60,367 nt of DNA from a virus (lineage: Duplodnaviria; Caudoviricetes). The first letter of the stretch is position 1. Each line of letters starts with the position of its first letter. Below, one piece after another: positions 3,796-57,947 of this stretch. The stretch is taken from positions 1 to 60,367 of the IMG/VR virus record IMGVR_UViG_3300016466_000235, one strand, 5' to 3'. Below the pieces are notes generated by a model. The model was not told where the DNA came from. It saw only the letters and a program-made list of their open reading frames with translations, and did not search any database. Made by a program: the position numbers and the translations under genes.

Positions 3796-3865
3796 CTAGG
3801 ATTTTTCACCCGTACAGACTGACCTAGCAGACTTAGTAGAGACGGTACGGGGATGTGCTACTACA
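3796..3865 (+). ncRNA. pseudoknotted RNA element downstream of the gpT-like MCP (probably the Mu-gpT-DE motif)
   Basis: Three interleaved helices: CTAGG/CCTAG, CCCGTAC/GTACGGG, TAGTAG/CTACTA; genomic context fits the Mu-gpT-DE motif. Confidence 0.6.
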
Positions 3866-3878
3866 CGAAAGGAATGTC

Positions 3879-4868
3879 ATGGCACGCACTACTTTTTCTG
3901 GCCCCGTGGTCTCCCCCGGCGGCTTCATTGGTCCTGTTCTTGGCGGTAACACCATTTTCACAGGCACCTTTTTCTACGTTAATCCCGCTACAGGCGCCGA
4001 TGGCAACGACGGATTGACCCCTGCTACCGCTGTTCAAAGCATTACCACTGCTTTTAATAAGTGTACTTCGGGTAATAACGATGTCGTCTATCTGATTGGT
4101 GACGGCACTACCGCAGGCACGGCCCGTATTTCTAGCACCCTGACATGGAATAAGAATGCCACTCACCTAATTGGTGTCTGCTCTCCCGTGGCGATTTCTC
4201 AGCGTGCCCGTATTTCTCACGCCGCCTCTGCTCCTACCACTGCGTTTACCCCGATGGTCCGTGTCACTGGAAATGGATGTCTGTTCTCAAACATTCAGAT
4301 TTTTGAAGGCTTTGCTGCTTCTACGGCAGTTGTGACTTGGGAAGATCAGGGCAATCGCAATTACTACTCAAATATGCAATTTGCTGGTATGGGTAATGCA
4401 ACCTACTCTGCTGATGAGACTGGAAGCGCCTGTTTGCTTCTGACCGGCGGCGGTGAGCATGTGTTTGACGGCTGCACATTTGGTGTTGATACAATCCCCC
4501 GTACGGTTGCTAACGCTAATATTCGTCTGCGTTCTGAGACTGCCCGTAATATCTTCCGTGGTTGTTTGACTTTAATCTATGCAACTGCTGCTGGTGTTCT
4601 GGCTGTTGATGCAAACGCTGCTAACTCTCTTAACCGTTGGGTTTTGTTTGAGGACTCAGTGTTTATCAATGCACAGAATATTTCAGGCGAAACAACTATG
4701 TCGGTTCTTGCTATTGGAAACGCAAACCAGAATGGTGTAATTCTTCTTACTAACTGTGTGCGTAATAACATCACTGCTTACGGTGCTGCTGGCGATCTAA
4801 TTAAGATTGCTAACTCCACTGATGCTGATACCACTAGCGCTGGTGGTGACTTCCAAAACGCCGCTTAA
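3879..4868 (+). CDS. virion protein with probable pectin-lyase-like beta-helix (head fibre/spike)
   Basis: MARTTFSGPV N-terminus; FYVNP..G.DGNDG.TP..A..SI..A motif; beta-helix-like periodicity; start follows the GAAAGGA RBS. Confidence 0.65.
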   Translation: MARTTFSGPVVSPGGFIGPVLGGNTIFTGTFFYVNPATGADGNDGLTPATAVQSITTAFNKCTSGNNDVVYLIGDGTTAGTARISSTLTWNKNATHLIGVCSPVAISQRARISHAASAPTTAFTPMVRVTGNGCLFSNIQIFEGFAASTAVVTWEDQGNRNYYSNMQFAGMGNATYSADETGSACLLLTGGGEHVFDGCTFGVDTIPRTVANANIRLRSETARNIFRGCLTLIYATAAGVLAVDANAANSLNRWVLFEDSVFINAQNISGETTMSVLAIGNANQNGVILLTNCVRNNITAYGAAGDLIKIANSTDADTTSAGGDFQNAA

Positions 4869-4873
4869 TAAGC

Positions 4874-4892
4874 AGGGGGCTTCGGCCCCCTT
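4874..4892 (+). terminator. UUCG hairpin (weak terminator or stabiliser)
   Basis: AGGGGGC-TTCG-GCCCCCT with a short U tail. Confidence 0.5.
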
Positions 4893-4903
4893 AAGGAGTT
4901 AGT

Positions 4904-5506
4904 ATGGGAACAATGCAATATGATGTATGGTCGGTGTCGGCTGACTCTAACGTTGCGTATTTTAGAGCTGCAGCCACAATCGGCGCTGCCGGGTCCTTGG
5001 CGCTTTTAAAGGCCAATCTCGGCACCAACGGTTACGGGTACAAAGTTTCGATCACCTCTAATGGCAATGATTCGGGCATCACGTTTACGATTATCGGAAA
5101 CAAAGTTGGACTTATTACCAACACGCCCACCATTACCGAAACAGTTACCGGACCAAATAACACAACCGTTTTTTCGACCAACTACTACAGCCGGATCACA
5201 AGCATTACAGTAAGCGGAACGTCCGTAAATAACGTTTCAATTGGCTATGGAAGCAACCTTGCGCTTCCCCGCACCCGGATCAAGGGCTTGTACTACGTTG
5301 GTGGCGGCTCGGCTGGAAGCATTACTGTGACCTCTCCAAACCGTGAGTTTCCGTTATTTAAAATTACAACCCCAGATCAAGCTGACAGCTTTGCAGACAG
5401 CCTATTTATCCCCTCTGAGGGTATTTTGGTTGGTGGAGATGCCCCGAATGACTACGGCGTTGTCACGGTTTCCAACGTCACGTCCTATACGCTTATCTGC
5501 GGGTGA
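4904..5506 (+). CDS. beta-rich virion structural protein
   Basis: 200 aa, S/T/G/N-rich; AAGGAG RBS. Confidence 0.7.
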   Translation: MGTMQYDVWSVSADSNVAYFRAAATIGAAGSLALLKANLGTNGYGYKVSITSNGNDSGITFTIIGNKVGLITNTPTITETVTGPNNTTVFSTNYYSRITSITVSGTSVNNVSIGYGSNLALPRTRIKGLYYVGGGSAGSITVTSPNREFPLFKITTPDQADSFADSLFIPSEGILVGGDAPNDYGVVTVSNVTSYTLICG

Positions 5507-39040: not shown

Positions 39041-39258
39041 ACAACTCCTTTAACTAGATTCGACTAGACGTACTAGCTGGGGCCGAAGCCCCACTAGCAC
39101 GGTTGAACCTAACACGCCGGAGAGCATAGAGTGCAAGAGCGCCGTTCAACTGATGCGGTTAATTGAGACCACCGTGGGAGGGCGGCTCCTAAAGGCTCAC
39201 TCACACCTTACGACCTTCAGGCTATCAGGCAGAAAAGAAACTGATAGGCTCAGATCGT
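39041..39258 (-). ncRNA. candidate structured sRNA/leader RNA with CU-rich anti-SD loops
   Basis: ORF-free ~220 nt behind its own promoter; stems CTATCAG/CTGATAG, CCGCC/GGTGG, GTTGAAC/GTTCAAC and a long UUCG hairpin. Confidence 0.6.
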
Positions 39259-39286
39259 ATTTTAGGGCGACTTAAAAATATGTCAA
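39259..39286 (-). promoter_or_regulatory. sigma70-like promoter
   Basis: TTGACA-16 bp-TAAAAT on the minus strand. Confidence 0.7.
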
Positions 39287-52949: not shown

Positions 52950-53129
52950 TCACTCCTCCGTGAATTGATATTTAAGGATGTCCGCGAAGAAGTACTTCAG
53001 TTCTTCATCTTCTATAACATCATCAAAATAACGGGGTGAGTAGTTGCGAACTTTTGGCTTATGCTCGCGCTTGTGTTTACGCTCAAGAATGACGCGGTCG
53101 GCTTTGGACTTGATCTGATTGTGTTTCAT
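52950..53129 (-). CDS. 59-aa first gene of the early operon, absent from the ORF track
   Basis: AAGGAGAGCATC RBS; MKHNQIKSKADRVILERKHKREHKPKVRNYSPRYFDD...FTEE. Confidence 0.65.
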   Translation of the reverse strand: MKHNQIKSKADRVILERKHKREHKPKVRNYSPRYFDDVIEDEELKYFFADILKYQFTEE

Positions 53130-53421
53130 TTGATGCTCTCCTTTAAGTGTGTTGGTGCAGAATGCACCCAGAGGGACATGCTCCTACCATGCCCCTGAAG
53201 TTGGACTCTGCTACGCATAGGTCTACGCTTTTTGTCCCCTGCTTTTTTGGCAGTCACCTGTAGGTGAAAGGTTAAGGACCGAGTGAGGTCTGAATTGCCG
53301 GTCCAGATGTGCGCACCGCCAACCATCGGGCGATGACGCTCTCACTCTCACATGCCGGTACTGCTCGGGGATATGACTCCCCTACGCCTACGGCACGGCT
53401 GGTTGCTCCAACCAGCAAACC

Positions 53422-53454
53422 AAATTGTTAAAGAACGATTCACCAGAAGGTGAA
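53422..53454 (-). promoter_or_regulatory. rrn-type boxA antitermination site preceded by a boxB-position hairpin
   Basis: Minus strand reads TTCACC-TTCT-GGTGAA then CGTTCTTTAACAATTT. Confidence 0.75.
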
Positions 53455-53496
53455 CTACTAAACAACGACACAACAACTTACTGCTACTACAATAAT

Positions 53497-53505
53497 ATTA
53501 TAACA
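53497..53505 (-). promoter_or_regulatory. extended -10 promoter of the main early operon
   Basis: TGTTATAAT on the minus strand, about 45 nt upstream of the boxB/boxA element. Confidence 0.65.
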
Positions 53506-53569
53506 CATAATGGGGAATAAGGAAGGCCGTTATCTGACTTTTTTTCGTAGAGCTGCAGGTTAGAAGAGG

Positions 53570-53920
53570 TTCCGAATTTTTGGGGCTGGAACAGGGTCAT
53601 TGGAACACTGGAACGCAGATTTTCAGGGGGGTGTAGTTCGCTAAGTTGTTGATTTATATATATAAATATATTTATTATTATTAAGAAGAGAGAGAAAAAA
53701 GCTGCGTGTTCCAATGTTCCAGTGTTTTTGAAGCGTCGGGGGGTTTTGGGCTTTTTTTGCTTGATGAACTTTGCAGTCTGCAAAAGCTTCTCTTCTTCTC
53801 TGCCAACCCCTGTGTTCTCTAAAAACCCCGGAACATTGGAACTTTGGAACGCGGAGCAAAAAAGTTGTTTTAAATCAATACTTTGCTGTGTTCCAGTAAA
53901 ACCCGGTTTTCGTTCCACGG
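53570..53920. promoter_or_regulatory. candidate replication origin: TGGAAC iterons, AT-rich tract, two IHF sites
   Basis: Convergent TGGAAC/GTTCCA clusters around WATCAANNNNTTR matches at 53642-53654 (-) and 53873-53885 (+). Confidence 0.55.
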
Positions 53921-54003
53921 ACGCTGTTTAGTGGTTCACCTAGACCTGAACGGCTAATTACGCGGCTAGCCCTGCAAAAAAGACTTGCACTTAGCCAAAA
54001 AAA

Positions 54004-54029
54004 GTGATACGCTGCACGCAGCGTATCAC
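54004..54029. repeat. perfect 12-bp inverted repeat
   Basis: GTGATACGCTGC-AC-GCAGCGTATCAC. Confidence 0.85.
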
Positions 54030-54109
54030 CTGACGGACTCGGCACACGCGCGCACAACGGCGCTCCAGCACGCGCGCACAAACATATAACTGGTCTCAAA
54101 TGGCGGGCG

Positions 54110-54141
54110 AAAAAAAACCCCGCTGACCGAAGTCAGCGGGG
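54110..54141 (-). terminator. intrinsic terminator
   Basis: CCCCGCTGAC-TTCG-GTCAGCGGGG followed by T8 on the minus strand. Confidence 0.9.
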
Positions 54142-54148
54142 TGAAGTA

Positions 54149-54811
54149 CTACTTCATTTTAAGCTTAAACGCTGCAATCGCGGCGTCCAGTTTGGTGAGG
54201 TCCACTGTCGTGTCACCTCGCGCTTTCGCGTTGACTGCCCTCTGCCTGATCACTGCTAGTTCTGCCTTGGCAGGGTTAGTGCCTCCGGTCATTAGCCAAT
54301 CGGTGAAGTCCAGAGTCGCACCTCGTGTCTGCTGAATGTTGTTGTCGATGCGGTATAAGCGCTTTGCCTCATTCAGCAGTGCCTTGCGACAGTTCGAAGC
54401 ATACTTGCTAAACGCGCTCCGAAGTCCGCCGATCAGTTCGTGCTTTGCAGGGTCAGTAGACTTCAGTCCCCCATACGCTTGCTGGGTGTAGGACATAGCC
54501 GCGAAAATCGACAGTTCGAACTTTTCTAAAACAGAGTCCTTTTTCTTGGTGATGTCGCATGAACGGACCCAGTTTTTATCCACAAGGGAATACTCAATCG
54601 CGGGATGGCGCTCATTGTATGCGAGCATATAACCCTGATTCAGTTCTTCCGTGACTTCATCACTGAACTTGAAATTGTCAGTTCCAAGTCCGGGAATCAG
54701 TCGCATCATGGCGCGAATATTGGAATCTGACACGCCTTTGATAATTCCCTGCTGACGGGCGCCGTCTTTGATTGAGTGAACTTCGGTGTTTAAAACAATG
54801 TCGTGAGACAT
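54149..54811 (-). CDS. early hypothetical protein
   Basis: Start placed at ATG 54811 after GAAAGG; followed by a terminator. Confidence 0.7.
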   Translation of the reverse strand: MSHDIVLNTEVHSIKDGARQQGIIKGVSDSNIRAMMRLIPGLGTDNFKFSDEVTEELNQGYMLAYNERHPAIEYSLVDKNWVRSCDITKKKDSVLEKFELSIFAAMSYTQQAYGGLKSTDPAKHELIGGLRSAFSKYASNCRKALLNEAKRLYRIDNNIQQTRGATLDFTDWLMTGGTNPAKAELAVIRQRAVNAKARGDTTVDLTKLDAAIAAFKLKMK

Positions 54812-54988
54812 GGTATTACCTTTCATAGAAAACCGGAATCCGTCCGGCGCGGTAGTAAAACTATCCCATAATACAGTCAAATTAGATAGGGTTTCAGGAG
54901 AGGGTGAAGCATAAAATAGCCATCTTACCCGCGCGCACGCGCCCGCCTAAGCCCGCCCGCACCCATACATAACTGGTATCAAAAGGGT

Positions 54989-55016
54989 TACACCCAAGGC
55001 CGAAGCCCTGGGTGTG
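54989..55016 (-). terminator. UUCG hairpin/terminator after the early cassettes
   Basis: CACACCCAGGGC-TTCG-GCCTTGGGTGTA on the minus strand. Confidence 0.6.
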
Positions 55017-55022
55017 ATGGTG

Positions 55023-55241
55023 CTAGATGTTGATGATGAAGACCTTGGTGCAACGGGAAAAGCGGAAGGTGATGGCCGTGAAGCCGTCATGCTTGAGATC
55101 ACGCAGTTGCGCCTTATTCACATAGCCGCCGTGGCTGATGTGGTTGACCATGAAGTCCTTGTTGGCGTCCCAATCTGCAAGCACTGCGGCCTTGGACTTG
55201 TAGTCGCGTCCGTATGCGGGGGTGAGGGTGATGGTGTTCAT
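55023..55241 (-). CDS. early cassette gene
   Basis: GGAGAGCATT-ATG; LTPAYGRDYKSK..V.ADW...KDF. Confidence 0.7.
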   Translation of the reverse strand: MNTITLTPAYGRDYKSKAAVLADWDANKDFMVNHISHGGYVNKAQLRDLKHDGFTAITFRFSRCTKVFIINI

Positions 55242-55281
55242 AATGCTCTCCAAGAAAAGGGGGCCGAAGCCCCGGGGTTTA
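55239..55281 (-). repeat. cassette spacer copy 1 (stop-UUCG hairpin-RBS-ATG)
   Basis: Near-identical to 55408-55451. Confidence 0.85.
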
Positions 55282-55410
55282 AAGGTCCAGCCAAAGTGAT
55301 TCATCAGGAACGCGTCTAGCTAACTCTAGCTCTCTAGGGAACAGATCTAACTGAACGAACCCGTAGAGTTTGTAGTGCAACATCTGACCAAGCGTGAGTG
55401 ATGTATCCAT
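55279..55410 (-). CDS. early cassette gene, 43 aa
   Basis: GGAGAGCATC-ATG; MDTSLTLGQMLHYKLYGFVQLDLF... Confidence 0.55.
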   Translation of the reverse strand: MDTSLTLGQMLHYKLYGFVQLDLFPRELELARRVPDESLWLDL

Positions 55411-55451
55411 GATGCTCTCCAAGAAAGGGGGCCGAAGCCCCCGAGGGTTTA
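55408..55451 (-). repeat. cassette spacer copy 2
   Basis: TAAACCCTCGGGGGCTTCGGCCCCCTTTCTTGGAGAGCATCATG. Confidence 0.85.
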
Positions 55452-55634
55452 GCGATTGCGTTCTACTACGCATTCGCCACGGGCCTGAATGATCTTGTTG
55501 GACCAGACGGGTTTGACCACACACAGGACATCGTGGCGTGGGTACTTGAACATCCAAGCGATGGCTTCGGACTTGGACCAAGATTTGTGCTCGTGGGTCT
55601 TGTTGCCCCACTGCACGAGGGTGCGATACATCAT
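55449..55634 (-). CDS. early cassette gene, 61 aa
   Basis: GGAGAGCATC-ATG; ends exactly at spacer copy 2. Confidence 0.65.
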   Translation of the reverse strand: MMYRTLVQWGNKTHEHKSWSKSEAIAWMFKYPRHDVLCVVKPVWSNKIIQARGECVVERNR

Positions 55635-55687
55635 GATGCTCTCCTATAAGGTTGGGAAATATGGCAACACCGCGTTGCCATGACTAA

Positions 55688-55717
55688 ATTATGTCTTAAA
55701 AGAAGGGGGAATATCAA
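55688..55717 (-). promoter_or_regulatory. sigma70-like promoter for the early cassettes
   Basis: TTGATA-18 bp-CATAAT, then 5' hairpin ATGGCAAC/GTTGCCAT (55661-55681). Confidence 0.55.
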
Positions 55718-55846
55718 GCCTTTCGACCCATGGTGACCCCACCTACCCCCCACCCCCCGGACGGCCCAGATGGGACCCGGCCCCACCCCCTACCCCGTAA
55801 TCCACACAAATAATCCGCAAAATTTCAAAATATCAGAAACCCCCCC

Positions 55847-55874
55847 TTGCTCTTTTTGGTTCCATATGTAAAAT
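55847..55874 (+). promoter_or_regulatory. promoter of the packaging/late operon
   Basis: TTGCTC-16 bp-TAAAAT, ending 8 nt before the ATG. Confidence 0.5.
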
Positions 55875-55882
55875 GAGCCTCC

Positions 55883-56473
55883 ATGTCTAGCTACATTCTT
55901 AATGTAGAGAGCAACATCCCATTACCCAGCTCTGCTACAGACGCTTTGCCACCTATGACTCAGAAAGAGGAGTTAGAGGTACGTGCACGCACTATCAAAT
56001 TAATTGCCGACTTGCAGGGTAAGCCCATTGAGCCTGATGATCACGACAGATCAGAAGCCCGCGAGCTTGCTCAAAAAATGCTAGGCGACACAGCTTCCAA
56101 CATTGAATTTAGTAACTACCGTAACGAGACGCTGGCTTATCTAGCCGGAATGGTCGCTCAATACGATCAGATGCTTGTGAAGGACTTAGCTGACTACAAA
56201 CTATATGTAGTTAACAAGCTTGTAGAAAAAAGCGCATGCCCCGACGACAAGATTGCGCTTGCCGCAGTTAAGGCTCTTGGCGAAGTCGATGGGGTGGATG
56301 CCTTTAAGAAGCGGTCAGAAGTTACGCTCCAGGTTAAACCTATTGAGCAAGTCGAGAAAGATCTTCTTAGTAAGTTAGAGAAGCTTGAAAGATTGGCTGA
56401 ACGGGCCAAACCTCACGAAGTAATTGATGTGGAAGCTACGGATGCTGACGTTAGAGAAGATAGCGAAGCTTAA
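55883..56473 (+). CDS. putative terminase small subunit
   Basis: Directly upstream of and overlapping TerL; ALAAVKALGEVDGVDAF. Confidence 0.6.
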   Translation: MSSYILNVESNIPLPSSATDALPPMTQKEELEVRARTIKLIADLQGKPIEPDDHDRSEARELAQKMLGDTASNIEFSNYRNETLAYLAGMVAQYDQMLVKDLADYKLYVVNKLVEKSACPDDKIALAAVKALGEVDGVDAFKKRSEVTLQVKPIEQVEKDLLSKLEKLERLAERAKPHEVIDVEATDADVREDSEA

Positions 56474-57947
56474 AAAACTCATGCCAATGATGTCTGCTGA
56501 TGAAAAACGAGAGTTTTTAGCAGATATAGAGGTGTGGGAAAGGGAAAATTTGCGCAAAGTTGGGCAAGATGACTTACTTGCCTTTGCAGATCACGTCTAT
56601 CCAGGCTATAAAGTAGGCCCACACCACAGAAAACTAGCAAGAATTTTTGAAGATATTGCCAACGGCAAGAAAAAACGCGTTGTAGTGAACATTGCCCCTC
56701 GCCACGGCAAGTCTGAGCTGATTTCTTACCTCGCTCCAGCGTGGTTTTTAGGCAAATACCCCCACAAAAAGGTGATTATGGCCTCGCACACTGCCGATTT
56801 GGCAGTGAATTTTGGTCGTAGGGTGCGTAACCTTGTAAATATGGATACATATAGAGACATTTTCCCGCAAATTGAGCTTCAGCAAGACTCAAAATCAGCT
56901 TCTAGGTGGGGTACAAACTTTAATGGCGAATATTTTGCAATTGGTGTGGGTGGTGCGCTGGCTGGACGAGGTGCTGATCTATTTATTATTGATGACCCGC
57001 ACTCTGAACAAGAGGCAAAACAAGGTCGTTCAGATGTATTTTTACCGGCTTGGGAATGGTTTCAATCTGGCCCTATTCAGCGGTTAATGCCAGGGGGGGC
57101 CATAGTCGTAGTAATGACTCGCTGGTCTAAATTAGATTTAACTGGTCAGATAATCAACCATATGTCTCAAAACGACGATGCAGATCAATGGGAAGTGGTT
57201 GAATTTCCAGCTATTCTACCGTCCGGGAACCCGCTCTGGCCGGACTTCTGGCCGATTGAGGAGCTAGAATCAAAACGTATTGGAATGGACCCTAGATATT
57301 GGCAAGCCCAATATATGCAAAACCCCACTGCTGAGGAGGGGGCATTAATAAAAAGAGATTGGTGGCAGATCTGGGAAAAAGACGACCCACCCCGTTGCGA
57401 ATTTATTATTATGTCTCTCGATGCCGCGCAGGAAGCAAATAATAGAGCGGATTATAATGCTCTGACGACTTGGGGGGTATTTTTTAATGAAGAGACTAGC
57501 AACCACAACATTATATTGTTGAACTCTATAAAGAAAAGGTTGGAGTTTCCGGAGTTAAAGCAGCTGGTGTTTGAGGAGTACAAGGAGTGGGAGCCTGATT
57601 CGTTTATAGTGGAGAAAAAGTCTAACGGTGCCGCGTTGTATCAAGAACTTAGGAGGATGGGAGTGCCGGTACAGGAGTTCACCCCCAGTAAAGGACAGGA
57701 CAAAATATCTCGTGTGAACGCAGTGTCAGATTTGTTCGCTAGTGGTATTGTGTGGGCGCCGGACACTCGCTGGGCGAAGGACGTGATTGAGGAGTGTAAT
57801 GACTTTCCGAGTGGGTCAAACGACGACTTGGTGGACTCCACAACACAAGCGCTATTAAGATTCCGTAGAGGGGGCTTTATCCGCCTGCCGAGTGATGAGC
57901 CCGAGGAACAAAAATACTACCGTCGTAGGCAGTACGCCTACTATTAA
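56442..57947 (+). CDS. terL: terminase large subunit
   Basis: NIAPRHGKS, IIDDPH, VMTRW, YMQNP, VEKK..G, DDLVDS. Confidence 0.95.
   Translation: MLTLEKIAKLKKLMPMMSADEKREFLADIEVWERENLRKVGQDDLLAFADHVYPGYKVGPHHRKLARIFEDIANGKKKRVVVNIAPRHGKSELISYLAPAWFLGKYPHKKVIMASHTADLAVNFGRRVRNLVNMDTYRDIFPQIELQQDSKSASRWGTNFNGEYFAIGVGGALAGRGADLFIIDDPHSEQEAKQGRSDVFLPAWEWFQSGPIQRLMPGGAIVVVMTRWSKLDLTGQIINHMSQNDDADQWEVVEFPAILPSGNPLWPDFWPIEELESKRIGMDPRYWQAQYMQNPTAEEGALIKRDWWQIWEKDDPPRCEFIIMSLDAAQEANNRADYNALTTWGVFFNEETSNHNIILLNSIKKRLEFPELKQLVFEEYKEWEPDSFIVEKKSNGAALYQELRRMGVPVQEFTPSKGQDKISRVNAVSDLFASGIVWAPDTRWAKDVIEECNDFPSGSNDDLVDSTTQALLRFRRGGFIRLPSDEPEEQKYYRRRQYAYY

Follow-up and report, generated by a model that had tools for sequence, protein, structure and literature searches.

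Mini-genes joined by a conserved hairpin and ribosome-binding-site adaptor in a tailed-phage genome and its relatives

The viral record IMGVR_UViG_3300016466_000235 (Duplodnaviria; Caudoviricetes), analyzed here over its full 60,367 nucleotides (nt) and referred to below as the window, has the appearance of a whole tailed-phage genome of ~60 kb. Positions 54989 to 55717 carry, on the minus strand, an array of three small open reading frames (ORFs) joined by two near-identical spacers, here called adaptors, each of which runs from the stop codon of one ORF to the start codon of the next and combines a G/C-rich hairpin with a ribosome-binding site (RBS). The adaptors and the platform in which they are set are conserved across related phages, whereas the genes between them differ. 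We assign a probability of about 60% to the reading in which a conserved platform for early expression, a “cassette rack,” stands at the head of the replication-gene strand.

Layout of the array

The TerL protein, encoded at 56424-57947 on the plus strand, is 48 to 55% identical to those of Pelagibacter phages HTVC027P and HTVC023P and of phage DSL-LC04. Plus-strand genes, including TerL and the structural genes, extend from 55883 round to about 32.9 kb, and minus-strand genes, including those for a family-A DNA polymerase, a helicase, and a primase, extend from the array down to 33.1 kb. Because of its position at the divergent control region, the array would be the first leftward-transcribed part, before the replication genes; from this position and from a sigma-70-like (host-type) promoter, we infer that it is expressed early. 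A blastn search of the region against 50,697 phage records returned no match. The array consists of the following features (lengths of proteins in amino acids [aa] and of stems in base pairs [bp]).

55717-55688, minus strand: candidate sigma-70-like promoter, TTGATA-18 nt-CATAAT, 10 of 12 consensus matches
55681-55661, minus strand: 5' leader stem-loop UGGCAACG...UGUUGCCA, 8-bp stem, just 3' of the -10 element
55644-55639, minus strand: RBS of ORF1, TAGGAGAGCATCATG, with the Shine-Dalgarno (SD) sequence GGAGAG; same RBS as in the adaptors
55634-55449, minus strand: ORF1, 61 aa, family F2
55451-55408, minus strand: adaptor 1, TAAACCCTCGGGGGCTTCGGCCCCCTTTCTTGGAGAGCATCATG, from TAA to AUG
55442-55427, minus strand: hairpin of adaptor 1, GGGGGC-UUCG-GCCCCC, followed by UUUCUU
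55420-55415, minus strand: SD of adaptor 1, GGAGAG
55410-55279, minus strand: ORF2, 43 aa, family F7
55353-55339, minus strand: QLDLF, residues 20 to 24 of ORF2
55281-55239, minus strand: adaptor 2, TAAACCCCGGGGCTTCGGCCCCCTTTTCTTGGAGAGCATTATG, from TAA to AUG
55273-55260, minus strand: hairpin of adaptor 2, GGGGC-UUCG-GCCCC, followed by the linker CUUUUCUU
55251-55246, minus strand: SD of adaptor 2, GGAGAG
55241-55023, minus strand: ORF3, 72 aa, family F15, PAYGRDY...DANKDF
55015-54990, minus strand: closing hairpin ACACCCAGGGC-UUCG-GCCUUGGGUGU, 11 pairs, likely array terminator
54983-54967, minus strand: conserved box TTTGATACCAGTTATGT, directly 3' of the closing hairpin

A first-pass annotation, made from the sequence alone, had described three unrelated ORFs separated by standardized spacers, with the same RBS before the first ORF and a related UUCG hairpin at the end. 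All elements of this array were found, on the minus strand: the three ORFs fall into separate BLAST families, and both the shared RBS of ORF1 and the UUCG closing hairpin are present. The adaptors, 43 to 44 nt long and 91% identical to each other, consist of TAA, a short C-rich lead-in, a G/C-rich hairpin with a UUCG loop, GGGG(G)C-UUCG-G(C)CCCC, the U-rich linker UUU(U)CUU, the RBS GGAGAGCAT (on the RNA, GGAGAGCAU(C/U)), and the start codon ATG. The hairpin core GGGGCTTCGGCCCC, with up to 2 mismatches, has 4 matches in the window (0.27 expected; 0 of 100 shuffles reach 4), and for the 16-nt RBS pattern, when up to 3 mismatches are allowed, there are 6 (1.06 expected; 0 of 100 shuffles reach 6). 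Three of these six RBS matches lie in the array and are the best three (0, 0, and 2 mismatches). Of the six UUCG-loop hairpins of the window, four fall within 54.1 to 55.5 kb.

Promoter-like sites are not enriched in the region overall (5 found versus 5.3 expected). The sole strong site lies upstream of ORF1 and none lies inside the adaptors; since the adaptors are promoterless, the whole array hangs on this one upstream promoter. The leader stem is present in both the minimum free energy and the centroid structures and is kept in the fold of the whole 726-nt transcript. Folding of the closing hairpin gives -21.2 kcal/mol (z, -3.09), and its U-run begins 5 nt past the stem; both adaptors pass a terminator consensus scan (5 of 8 T). 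Searches of the window found no Rfam family at gathering thresholds and no tRNA gene with ARAGORN.

The stop-hairpin-RBS layout also occurs outside the array, on the plus (structural-gene) strand at 4862-4910, where AGGGGGC-UUCG-GCCCCCU sits between the stop codon of ORF 3855-4868 and the RBS (AAGGAG) of ORF 4904-5506.

Constant platform and changing cargo in related loci

For comparison, 99 loci were fetched by a TerL scan and an adaptor-pattern scan, and 36 of these hold both genes that flank the array in the window, the 196-aa gene p196 upstream of TerL and the 220-aa gene p220. There is some redundancy among the loci: L011 and L064 are the same contig, and L059/L061, L093/L094, and L042/L043 are near-duplicates. 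The p196-p220 interval ranges from 704 to 2,179 nt in the 36 loci and measures 1,072 nt in the window.

Most relatives keep the same platform, consisting of a G-rich stretch, a -35/-10-like pair, a leader hairpin, a strong RBS, the mini-genes, and, at the 3' end, a closing hairpin with a U-run followed by the box TTTGATACCAGTTATGTGT. A strict promoter regular expression matched in 8 of 37 arrays and was replaced by inspection of the upstream sequences, in which the -35/-10-like pair and the leader hairpin recur at the same place before the first ORF in most relatives. The leader hairpins themselves differ in sequence (GCCGGTATGTTCCGGT, GGCAGTAATTCCTGCC).

The cargo is far from constant. The 96 mini-ORFs of the 37 arrays form 35 BLAST families, with 21 singletons, and weak homologues in the 36 related arrays number 7 for ORF1, 2 for ORF2, and 0 for ORF3. 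When the p196-p220 gap of the window is compared by blastn with those of L022, L032, L034, and L053, the aligned parts are the divergent promoter region, the two adaptors (80 to 90%), and the post-terminator box, and the only cargo match is that of ORF2 with L032. Variable cargo between constant spacers, which the first-pass annotation had proposed to look for, is seen both in these relatives and in the metagenome contigs described below.

The exact hairpin-RBS pattern was found in 19 viral stretches, and only two of them (L001 and L011) have both flanking genes. The other 17 (L002 to L010 and L012 to L019) carry the pattern without the flanking genes of the window, so that use of the adaptor may extend to further groups of phages. 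A Trp-rich family of 52 to 55 aa (..WGIWYALWLHG..LWTIFVA..) always occupies the last slot before the terminator (L011, L026, L048, L053, L059, L061, and L064), which suggests a positional constraint for some cargo.

Adaptor classes

Among the 59 junctions between neighboring mini-ORFs, 39 distinct ones are 30 to 65 nt long and follow one plan: stop codon, lead-in (often TAATCAACC), hairpin, A/U-rich linker, SD, and ATG. The standard adaptor measures 37 to 47 nt from stop to start, with a 5- to 7-bp G/C stem, mostly a UUCG loop, and the RBS GGAGAGCAUC followed by AUG; its hairpin repeats are perfect palindromes of 14 to 18 nt. In 26 aligned adaptors of the main class, G11-C15, G20, C22-23, G33, and the ATG are invariant, and the lead-in TAATCAACC and a GCATC between SD and ATG are kept across adaptors. 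The adaptor class varies from clade to clade, for example, GAGGGGC-UUCG-GCCCCUC with UAGGAGAA, ACCGCA-GGGA-UGCGGU with CUGGAGAU, and GAGGGUG-CGCUU-CACCCUC with AGGGAGAU. All classes share one architecture.

Compensatory changes are found within two of these classes, namely, ACCGCA/UGCGGU versus ACCGCC/GGCGGU (ACCGCAGGGATGCGGT versus ACCGCCGAGAGGCGGT) and GAGGGUG/CACCCUC versus GCGGGUG/CACCCGC (in the DNA, GAGGGTG..CACCCTC versus GCGGGTG..CACCCGC). In the 26 main-class adaptors, 89% of the cells are paired, and two outer pairs change from G-C to A-U in four sequences each.

Internal and closing hairpins of the relatives differ in their terminator-like features. For the 20 distinct closing hairpins, classed by the downstream box GA[TG][AG]CCAGT within 45 nt, stem length averages 7.2 bp, the 8 nt that follow contain 5.8 T, and the initial T-run measures 3.1, compared with 6.1 bp, 4.3 T, and 1.0 for the 31 internal ones; at least 5 T in 8 nt are present in 14 of the 20 and 17 of the 31, respectively. 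Judged by these sequence features, the closing hairpins look like true intrinsic terminators and the internal ones like leaky terminators at best.

Breakpoints and natural variants

Where relatives differ by an indel or a replacement, the breakpoints lie within an adaptor or right next to one. L032 has the content of L031 with a 36-aa gene and an adaptor added, and the leader RBS and the adaptor RBS bound this indel. L053 has one cassette (F29) more than L048, between the common F12 and F4 slots; DNA similarity between the two (83% and 89%) spans F12 and its adaptor and restarts exactly at the adaptor before F5, with the gene between them diverged. In L034, two neighboring cassettes belong to the same family (F1) and their adaptors are 93% identical.

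Metagenome contigs from four runs of four studies were compared with positions 54100 to 56500 of the window. A contig of run X9 (1,863 nt; 41 letter differences over 1,157 aligned bases) joins 54983 to 55250, inside adaptor 2, skipping 266 nt (side, 255), and represents a strain without ORF3 and the closing hairpin. In this contig, the adaptor 2 hairpin is followed by CUUUUCUUGG and two extra letters and then by the TTTGATACCAG box, an arrangement also present in L022, L031, and L034. In contigs from X1, X2, and X10, the match covers an adaptor or a single cassette, past which the sequence is unlike the window, with loose ends at 55443, 55406, 55403, 55251, and 54830; one of them has an ORF3 variant behind a different hairpin, and another keeps the end of ORF1 and adaptor 1 and has other cargo from the third codon of ORF2 on. 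A joint of 54854 to 55424 in X2 was not used, its side being only 21 letters, and differences in depth between cassettes and flanks in that run were likewise set aside. The stronger evidence on breakpoints comes from the bridging X9 contig and the locus comparisons, not from the loose ends, which are partly expected at adaptors since assemblies break at repeats.

The first-pass annotation had cast the spacers as points for the swapping of genes. The pattern of exchange that it implied is present in relatives and contigs alike; the recombination mechanism is a conjecture drawn from that pattern.

Cargo proteins

The QLDLF of ORF2 is an exact instance of QL[SD]LF, the bacterial beta-clamp-binding consensus according to PMC12867686 and PMC9690074. 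In the alignment of the ORF2 family (A2), Q20, L21, L23, and F24 are the only invariant columns. A word-based homologue search with ORF2 returned 3 proteins, and a profile search of 1.84 billion representatives returned 11, with the motif in 9 of the 9 small ones; the 2 long ones are taken as chance matches. QLxLF is present in 22 of the 96 mini-proteins, from 5 BLAST families, or in 20 of the 86 unique ones, for which shuffled sequences average 0.1 and never exceed 2. The motif was not found in the window ORFs of at least 100 aa (18,482 aa). Cargo of the relatives often has QLELF, QLSLF, or QLRLF at residues 2 to 7, and Pfam searches with 13 F1 proteins returned nothing above chance level.

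Cofolding of ORF2 with Escherichia coli DnaN, a stand-in for the host protein, gives weak support for clamp binding (0.57 versus 0.00 for the best of 3 controls). Agreement among the runs is at least 89% of contacts, with a partner pLDDT of at least 59; no interface was reported. Among solved complexes, 58 of 80 reach the mark, as do 2 of 110 mismatched pairs, and values up to 0.60 include only 7 of those 80 together with both mismatches that passed. By the rating of the tool itself, most passes at such a score are wrong when the guess had no prior likelihood. Clamp-peptide complexes have been solved, so that the pass may reflect memorization by the model. The odds that ORF2 binds the clamp are roughly even.

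If they do bind, the QLxLF proteins might obstruct the replisome of the host, bring the clamp to phage DNA, or link transcription with replication. The last has a precedent in the MuC and Mor proteins of phage Mu, which, as described in PMC12867686, do so through N-terminal motifs. ORF2 shares QL[SD]LF with these proteins and with Hda and polymerases (PMC12867686 and PMC9690074), and the likeness to Mor and MuC extends to their being small phage proteins and to the N-terminal position of the motif in much of the related cargo. Gp168 of phage Twort, a clamp inhibitor, works by occupying the DNA channel of the clamp, according to the title of PMC8565349. The cargo differs from Mor/MuC, Hda, and Gp168 in that no sequence or Pfam relation to them was found. 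No description of small phage proteins with clamp-binding motifs beyond those of Mu and Twort was found in the limited literature collection searched, and the presence of the pentapeptide in 22 of the 96 cargo proteins is new.

ORF1 belongs to family F2, which has 11 members among the 96 mini-ORFs and occupies the first slot in 10 relatives. H16, A24, W27, Y31, and R52 are invariant in its alignment (A5), and a word-based search returned 2 homologues. Its AF2 model (pLDDT, 86.5) has as best rows the T4 antitoxin Dmd (5hy3_B; Z, 5.8; root mean square deviation, 2.8; 53 aligned residues) and also resembles AcrIF9 (Z, 5.0), both below the trust level of Z 8; Foldseek found nothing at an E value of ≤0.001 for this fold (E value, 1.7). 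The likeness of the model to Dmd and AcrIF9 is weak, a lead only. Pfam and PHROGs searches with ORF1 to ORF3, p220, and p196 gave nothing below an E value of 0.09.

ORF3, as judged by its homologues, is a member of a widespread unnamed phage protein family, with 254 homologues at an E value of ≤1e-3 and occurrences in 359 viral stretches. Its invariant residues are P8, A9, G11, R12, D13, Y14, D23, D29, and F30 (PAYGRDY...D...DF). The model is a confident small alpha/beta fold (pLDDT, 93.7), for which Foldseek against PDB gave a best E value of 0.39, VIA-align over 48,161 chains a best Z of 2.8, and ESM Atlas no usable match. A perfect G/C hairpin lies within 60 nt upstream of 33 of 77 ORF3 homologues versus 27 of 198 control ORFs. 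In many homologues from other phages, the SD precedes the hairpin (stop, GGAGA, the GAAA-loop hairpin CGGGCGGGGAAACCCGCCCG, ~9 nt, and ATG), an order in which the hairpin would be predicted to bring the SD near the start codon. Such SD-before-hairpin adaptors are found in L115 to L123, L130, L136 to L140, L144, L156, L158, L164, and L182, and on both sides of the gene in L120 to L122. With ORF3 homologues behind different adaptors, the same cargo appears in lineage-specific sockets.

As for the host-takeover or antidefense functions that the first-pass annotation had attributed to the cargo, the clamp motif of ORF2 and the weak likeness of ORF1 to Dmd and AcrIF9 are concrete leads in that direction.

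Comparison with known systems

The closest analogue is the promoter-early stem-loop (PeSL) cassette of T4-type phages, as portrayed by Arbiol et al. in 2010 (PMC2839356) and by Comeau et al. in 2014 (PMC4122927). Both PeSLs and adaptors are composite motifs that extend from the stop codon of a small gene to the next SD and start codon, both place a G/C-rich stem-loop between that stop and that SD, and both are concentrated among small orphan early genes, those of the PeSL regions being nonessential. The PeSL stem-loop attenuates or terminates; its counterparts here are the hairpins at 55442-55427 and 55273-55260 and the 31 distinct internal ones of related arrays. Motif-bounded indels and replacements, another shared trait, are represented by L031/L032, by L048/L053, and by the window versus L022, L032, L034, L053, and X9. 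Recombination between nearby PeSL units also yields mini-circles that are encapsidated. However, every PeSL unit has a strong sigma-70 promoter, whereas the adaptors have neither room for, nor a trace of, -35/-10 hexamers. Because this defining promoter is absent, the adaptors are not PeSLs. The hosts of the motif differ as well, T4-like myoviruses in one case and a ~60-kb relative of HTVC023P-type podophages in the other. By analogy, the array plausibly evolves like PeSL regions. No description of promoterless hairpin-RBS cassette arrays in phages was found in the limited literature collection searched.

Two other systems share parts of this arrangement. Hairpins that act as intercistronic stabilizers or attenuators, such as repetitive extragenic palindromic (REP) hairpins and the RNase III sites of early T7 transcripts, are expected to protect 3' ends or to terminate partially. 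The array resembles them in having a stem-loop directly after the cistron on what is predicted to be a polycistronic RNA, and it differs in that the hairpin is fused to a fixed RBS and the module is conserved while the genes on both sides change. In an integron, each cassette carries a long imperfect inverted-repeat site (attC), and a tyrosine-recombinase integrase is encoded adjacent to the array. The common ground with integron arrays is an ordered set of promoterless small genes behind one promoter, with repeats between them and content that varies among relatives. Unlike attC sites, the adaptors are short, perfect, RBS-carrying hairpins, and no integrase was found among the 10 minus-strand proteins scanned; presumably, exchange proceeds by general homologous recombination.

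Neighboring features

Between the start of p196 and the array promoter (about 55729-55826) lies a conserved noncoding stretch, G-rich on the minus strand (GGGGTAGGGGGTGGGG...GGGGGGTGGGGGGTAGGTGGGGT), that is ~80% identical to those of relatives despite being noncoding. Next to the TerS-like gene, it might serve in control or packaging or be an element of the G-quadruplex type.

The box that follows the closing hairpin is part of a module with two copies in the window, one after the array and one after p220. The module comprises a UUCG terminator, the box TTTGA(T/G)ACCAGTTAT(G/A)T, and a G/C-rich stretch. At the p220 terminator (module at 54142-54070, minus strand), it reads ACCCCGCTGAC-UUCG-GTCAGCGGGGT, U8, and TTTGAGACCAGTTATATGT, with the second box at about 54105-54087. 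The box also occurs, in reverse orientation, after ORF3 homologues in L115, L118, and L119. Possible roles are a site for a regulator and a promoter of unusual type.

Farther along, at about 53130-54100, is ~1 kb with no convincing ORF. It includes an A/T-rich tract (53640-53700) flanked by repeated GTTCCA/TGGAAC words and then a G/C-rich structured stretch before ORF 52950-53129, and it is a candidate replication origin and/or noncoding RNA. ORF 52950-53129, outside the array, uses the same RBS, GGAGAGCATC.

The helicase gene is preceded by a 240-nt intergenic region (39041-39282, minus strand) with a promoter-like site, TTGACA-16-TAAAAT, and a structured 3' part around another GGGGCUUCGGCCCC hairpin (z, -4.19). 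This region is probably a long regulatory leader.

Interpretation and alternatives

In the preferred reading, one host-type promoter, with the 5' stem-loop behind it, would drive a polycistronic RNA on which small accessory genes are joined by the standard adaptor, and a longer hairpin with a U-run would end the array. The ~40-nt adaptor, shared within and between coinfecting genomes, could act as a homology patch for the gain, loss, and replacement of cassettes, a scheme modeled on the PeSL cassettes of T4-like phages. Each hairpin would give the upstream cistron a nuclease-resistant 3' end, protecting it after a failure of read-through or after cleavage in the A/U linker, and/or serve as a leaky terminator; it would also keep the next RBS in a constant, cargo-independent context, which is what a site that accepts arbitrary cargo needs. 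For the RNA, a stabilized polycistronic early transcript with a conserved 5' leader hairpin seems the preferable reading, and the role of RNA processing or stability units that the first-pass annotation had given to the spacers is plausible. The cargo would be a changeable set of host-takeover or antidefense mini-proteins, with ORF2 and about a fifth of the cargo of relatives docking on the host beta sliding clamp through QLxLF. Cassette exchange is well supported; from the conserved layout and sequences we infer recombination at the adaptors, a function of the hairpins on the RNA, and clamp binding.

Several observations weigh against this reading. Folded alone, the adaptor hairpins are no more stable than dinucleotide shuffles (z, -0.24 and -0.40), and their significance lies in repetition and conservation rather than in folding energy. 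The five core stem pairs never vary in the main class, which makes covariation there uninformative, and the double changes of the outer pairs are modest and may reflect a single event. Six of the 59 junctions are overlaps or gaps of 1 to 10 nt with no hairpin (the F7-F1 junction of L031 and L032 and junctions of L051, L081, L085, and L087). About a third of the internal hairpins have no U-rich tail (for example, AUCAAC or AUAAAC), which excludes leaky termination as the role of all of them. At the X9 junction, there is no clean crossover from repeat to repeat; the junction has two extra letters and unlike sequences on either side, and may result from illegitimate recombination or represent the ancestral state. 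Promoter, transcript ends, processing, and timing are all predictions from the nucleotide sequence.

Part of this evidence would suit an account of the array as operon punctuation only, with hairpins and RBSs as regulatory signals and the cargo turning over by illegitimate recombination in a dispensable region; breakpoints would then sit at adaptors since selection removes events that damage genes or signals. Besides the X9 junction, such an account can draw on the hairpin after ORF 3855-4868, which is on the other strand and has a different RBS (TAA..AGGGGGCTTCGGCCCCCTTAAGGAG..ATG), as expected of a general phage signal, on the use of the array RBS by ORF 52950-53129, and on the ORF3 homologues behind unrelated adaptors elsewhere, which indicate that cargo moves without its adaptor. 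However, conservation of the adaptors, including the TAATCAACC lead-in and the GCAUC, far exceeds what a hairpin, an SD, and the other RNA roles need, which fits a second role as homology patch. The indel between L031 and L032 is bounded by two RBS copies, homology between L048 and L053 restarts at an adaptor, and L034 has two adjacent cassettes of one family behind nearly identical adaptors. Adaptors are also more alike within one genome (identity of 0.865 over 10 pairs) than between genomes (0.759 over 315 pairs), a within-genome mean reached by 0 of 10,000 random sets, although shared descent would raise it too. We regard punctuation alone as a somewhat unlikely explanation. It is unlikely, too, that the adaptors mainly cut the early RNA into monocistronic mRNAs, each ending in a protective hairpin, for example through RNase E cleavage in the A/U-rich linker; the RNase III sites between T7 early genes have a similar processing outcome. 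The single-stranded A/U-rich linker (AUUUCUUAGG, UUCUUUAUAGG) that follows the hairpin in most of the 39 junctions, the conserved leader hairpin, which fits a transcript built for stability, and the internal hairpins with no terminator-like U-run agree with such processing. On the other hand, RNase III needs about two helical turns, for which stems of 5 to 7 bp are too short, and no Rfam family matched in the window.

The remaining alternatives assign the repeats a partner elsewhere. The first-pass annotation had matched the adaptor RBS to an RNA from the 39-kb region, and one could imagine that this intergenic RNA (39.0 to 39.3 kb) acts in trans through AUGCUCUCC, targeting the adaptor RBS GGAGAGCAU and shutting off translation of the mini-genes. 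The match is just a 9-nt complement, AUGCUCUCC at 39119-39127, with one antisense copy, and a 9-mer is expected 0.39 times by chance per window, so that a single extra copy is near chance. Read on the strand of the array, ATGCUCUCC at the same position can form 11 bp with UUGGAGAGCAU when two of them may be G-U, and the region is intergenic with a strongly structured 3' part; yet among 15 helicase relatives only L100 keeps it, and there the aligned place reads AATGCCTCC, as would suit a generic anti-SD with a possible cis action on the AAGGAG of the helicase gene itself. No contig carried both this region and an array. The AUGCUCUCC of the window could equally be such a cis anti-SD in the long leader of that gene. 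The claimed match is unsupported, not refuted, and trans-antisense control is very improbable. Scarcely probable at all is an origin of the repeats as mobile or site-specific elements, either REP-like or miniature inverted-repeat transposable element (MITE)-like insertions or integron-attC-like sites served by a dedicated enzyme. Short palindromic repeats in intergenic positions, a cassette-like organization, and the occurrence of the exact pattern in 19 viral stretches would be in keeping with it. But the palindromes are perfect, 14 to 18 nt long, and set in a fixed stop-to-start frame, and they lack both terminal inverted repeats and target duplications; the 60-kb window has only 4 copies; and a scan confined to 10 large proteins of the minus strand found no integrase or transposase.

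A bolder form of the cassette-rack reading can be put forward tentatively, as a possibility with the odds against it. It would see a plug-and-play early-gene rack across a family of abundant water phages, in which lineage-specific adaptors are both expression insulators and recombination sockets and much of the cargo consists of diversified clamp-docking QLxLF mini-proteins, whose swapping tunes the seizure or block of the replisome. In this view, the SD-hairpin-AUG adaptor of other phages with the ORF3 family would point to a general principle.

Implications

Phages keep most of their host-takeover and antidefense functions in small early genes, nearly all of which are orphans and hard to find. 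The conserved adaptor provides a sequence handle with which such genes could be harvested from metagenomes, on a platform present in dozens of uncultured relatives. With the array, the view of regulatory cassettes as anchors for recombination, known from PeSLs, is widened to an unrelated phage lineage and to a form that has an RBS but no promoter. Enrichment of the clamp motif is a testable hypothesis on how phages handle the host replisome; if it is true, the mini-proteins would be natural clamp-binding peptides.

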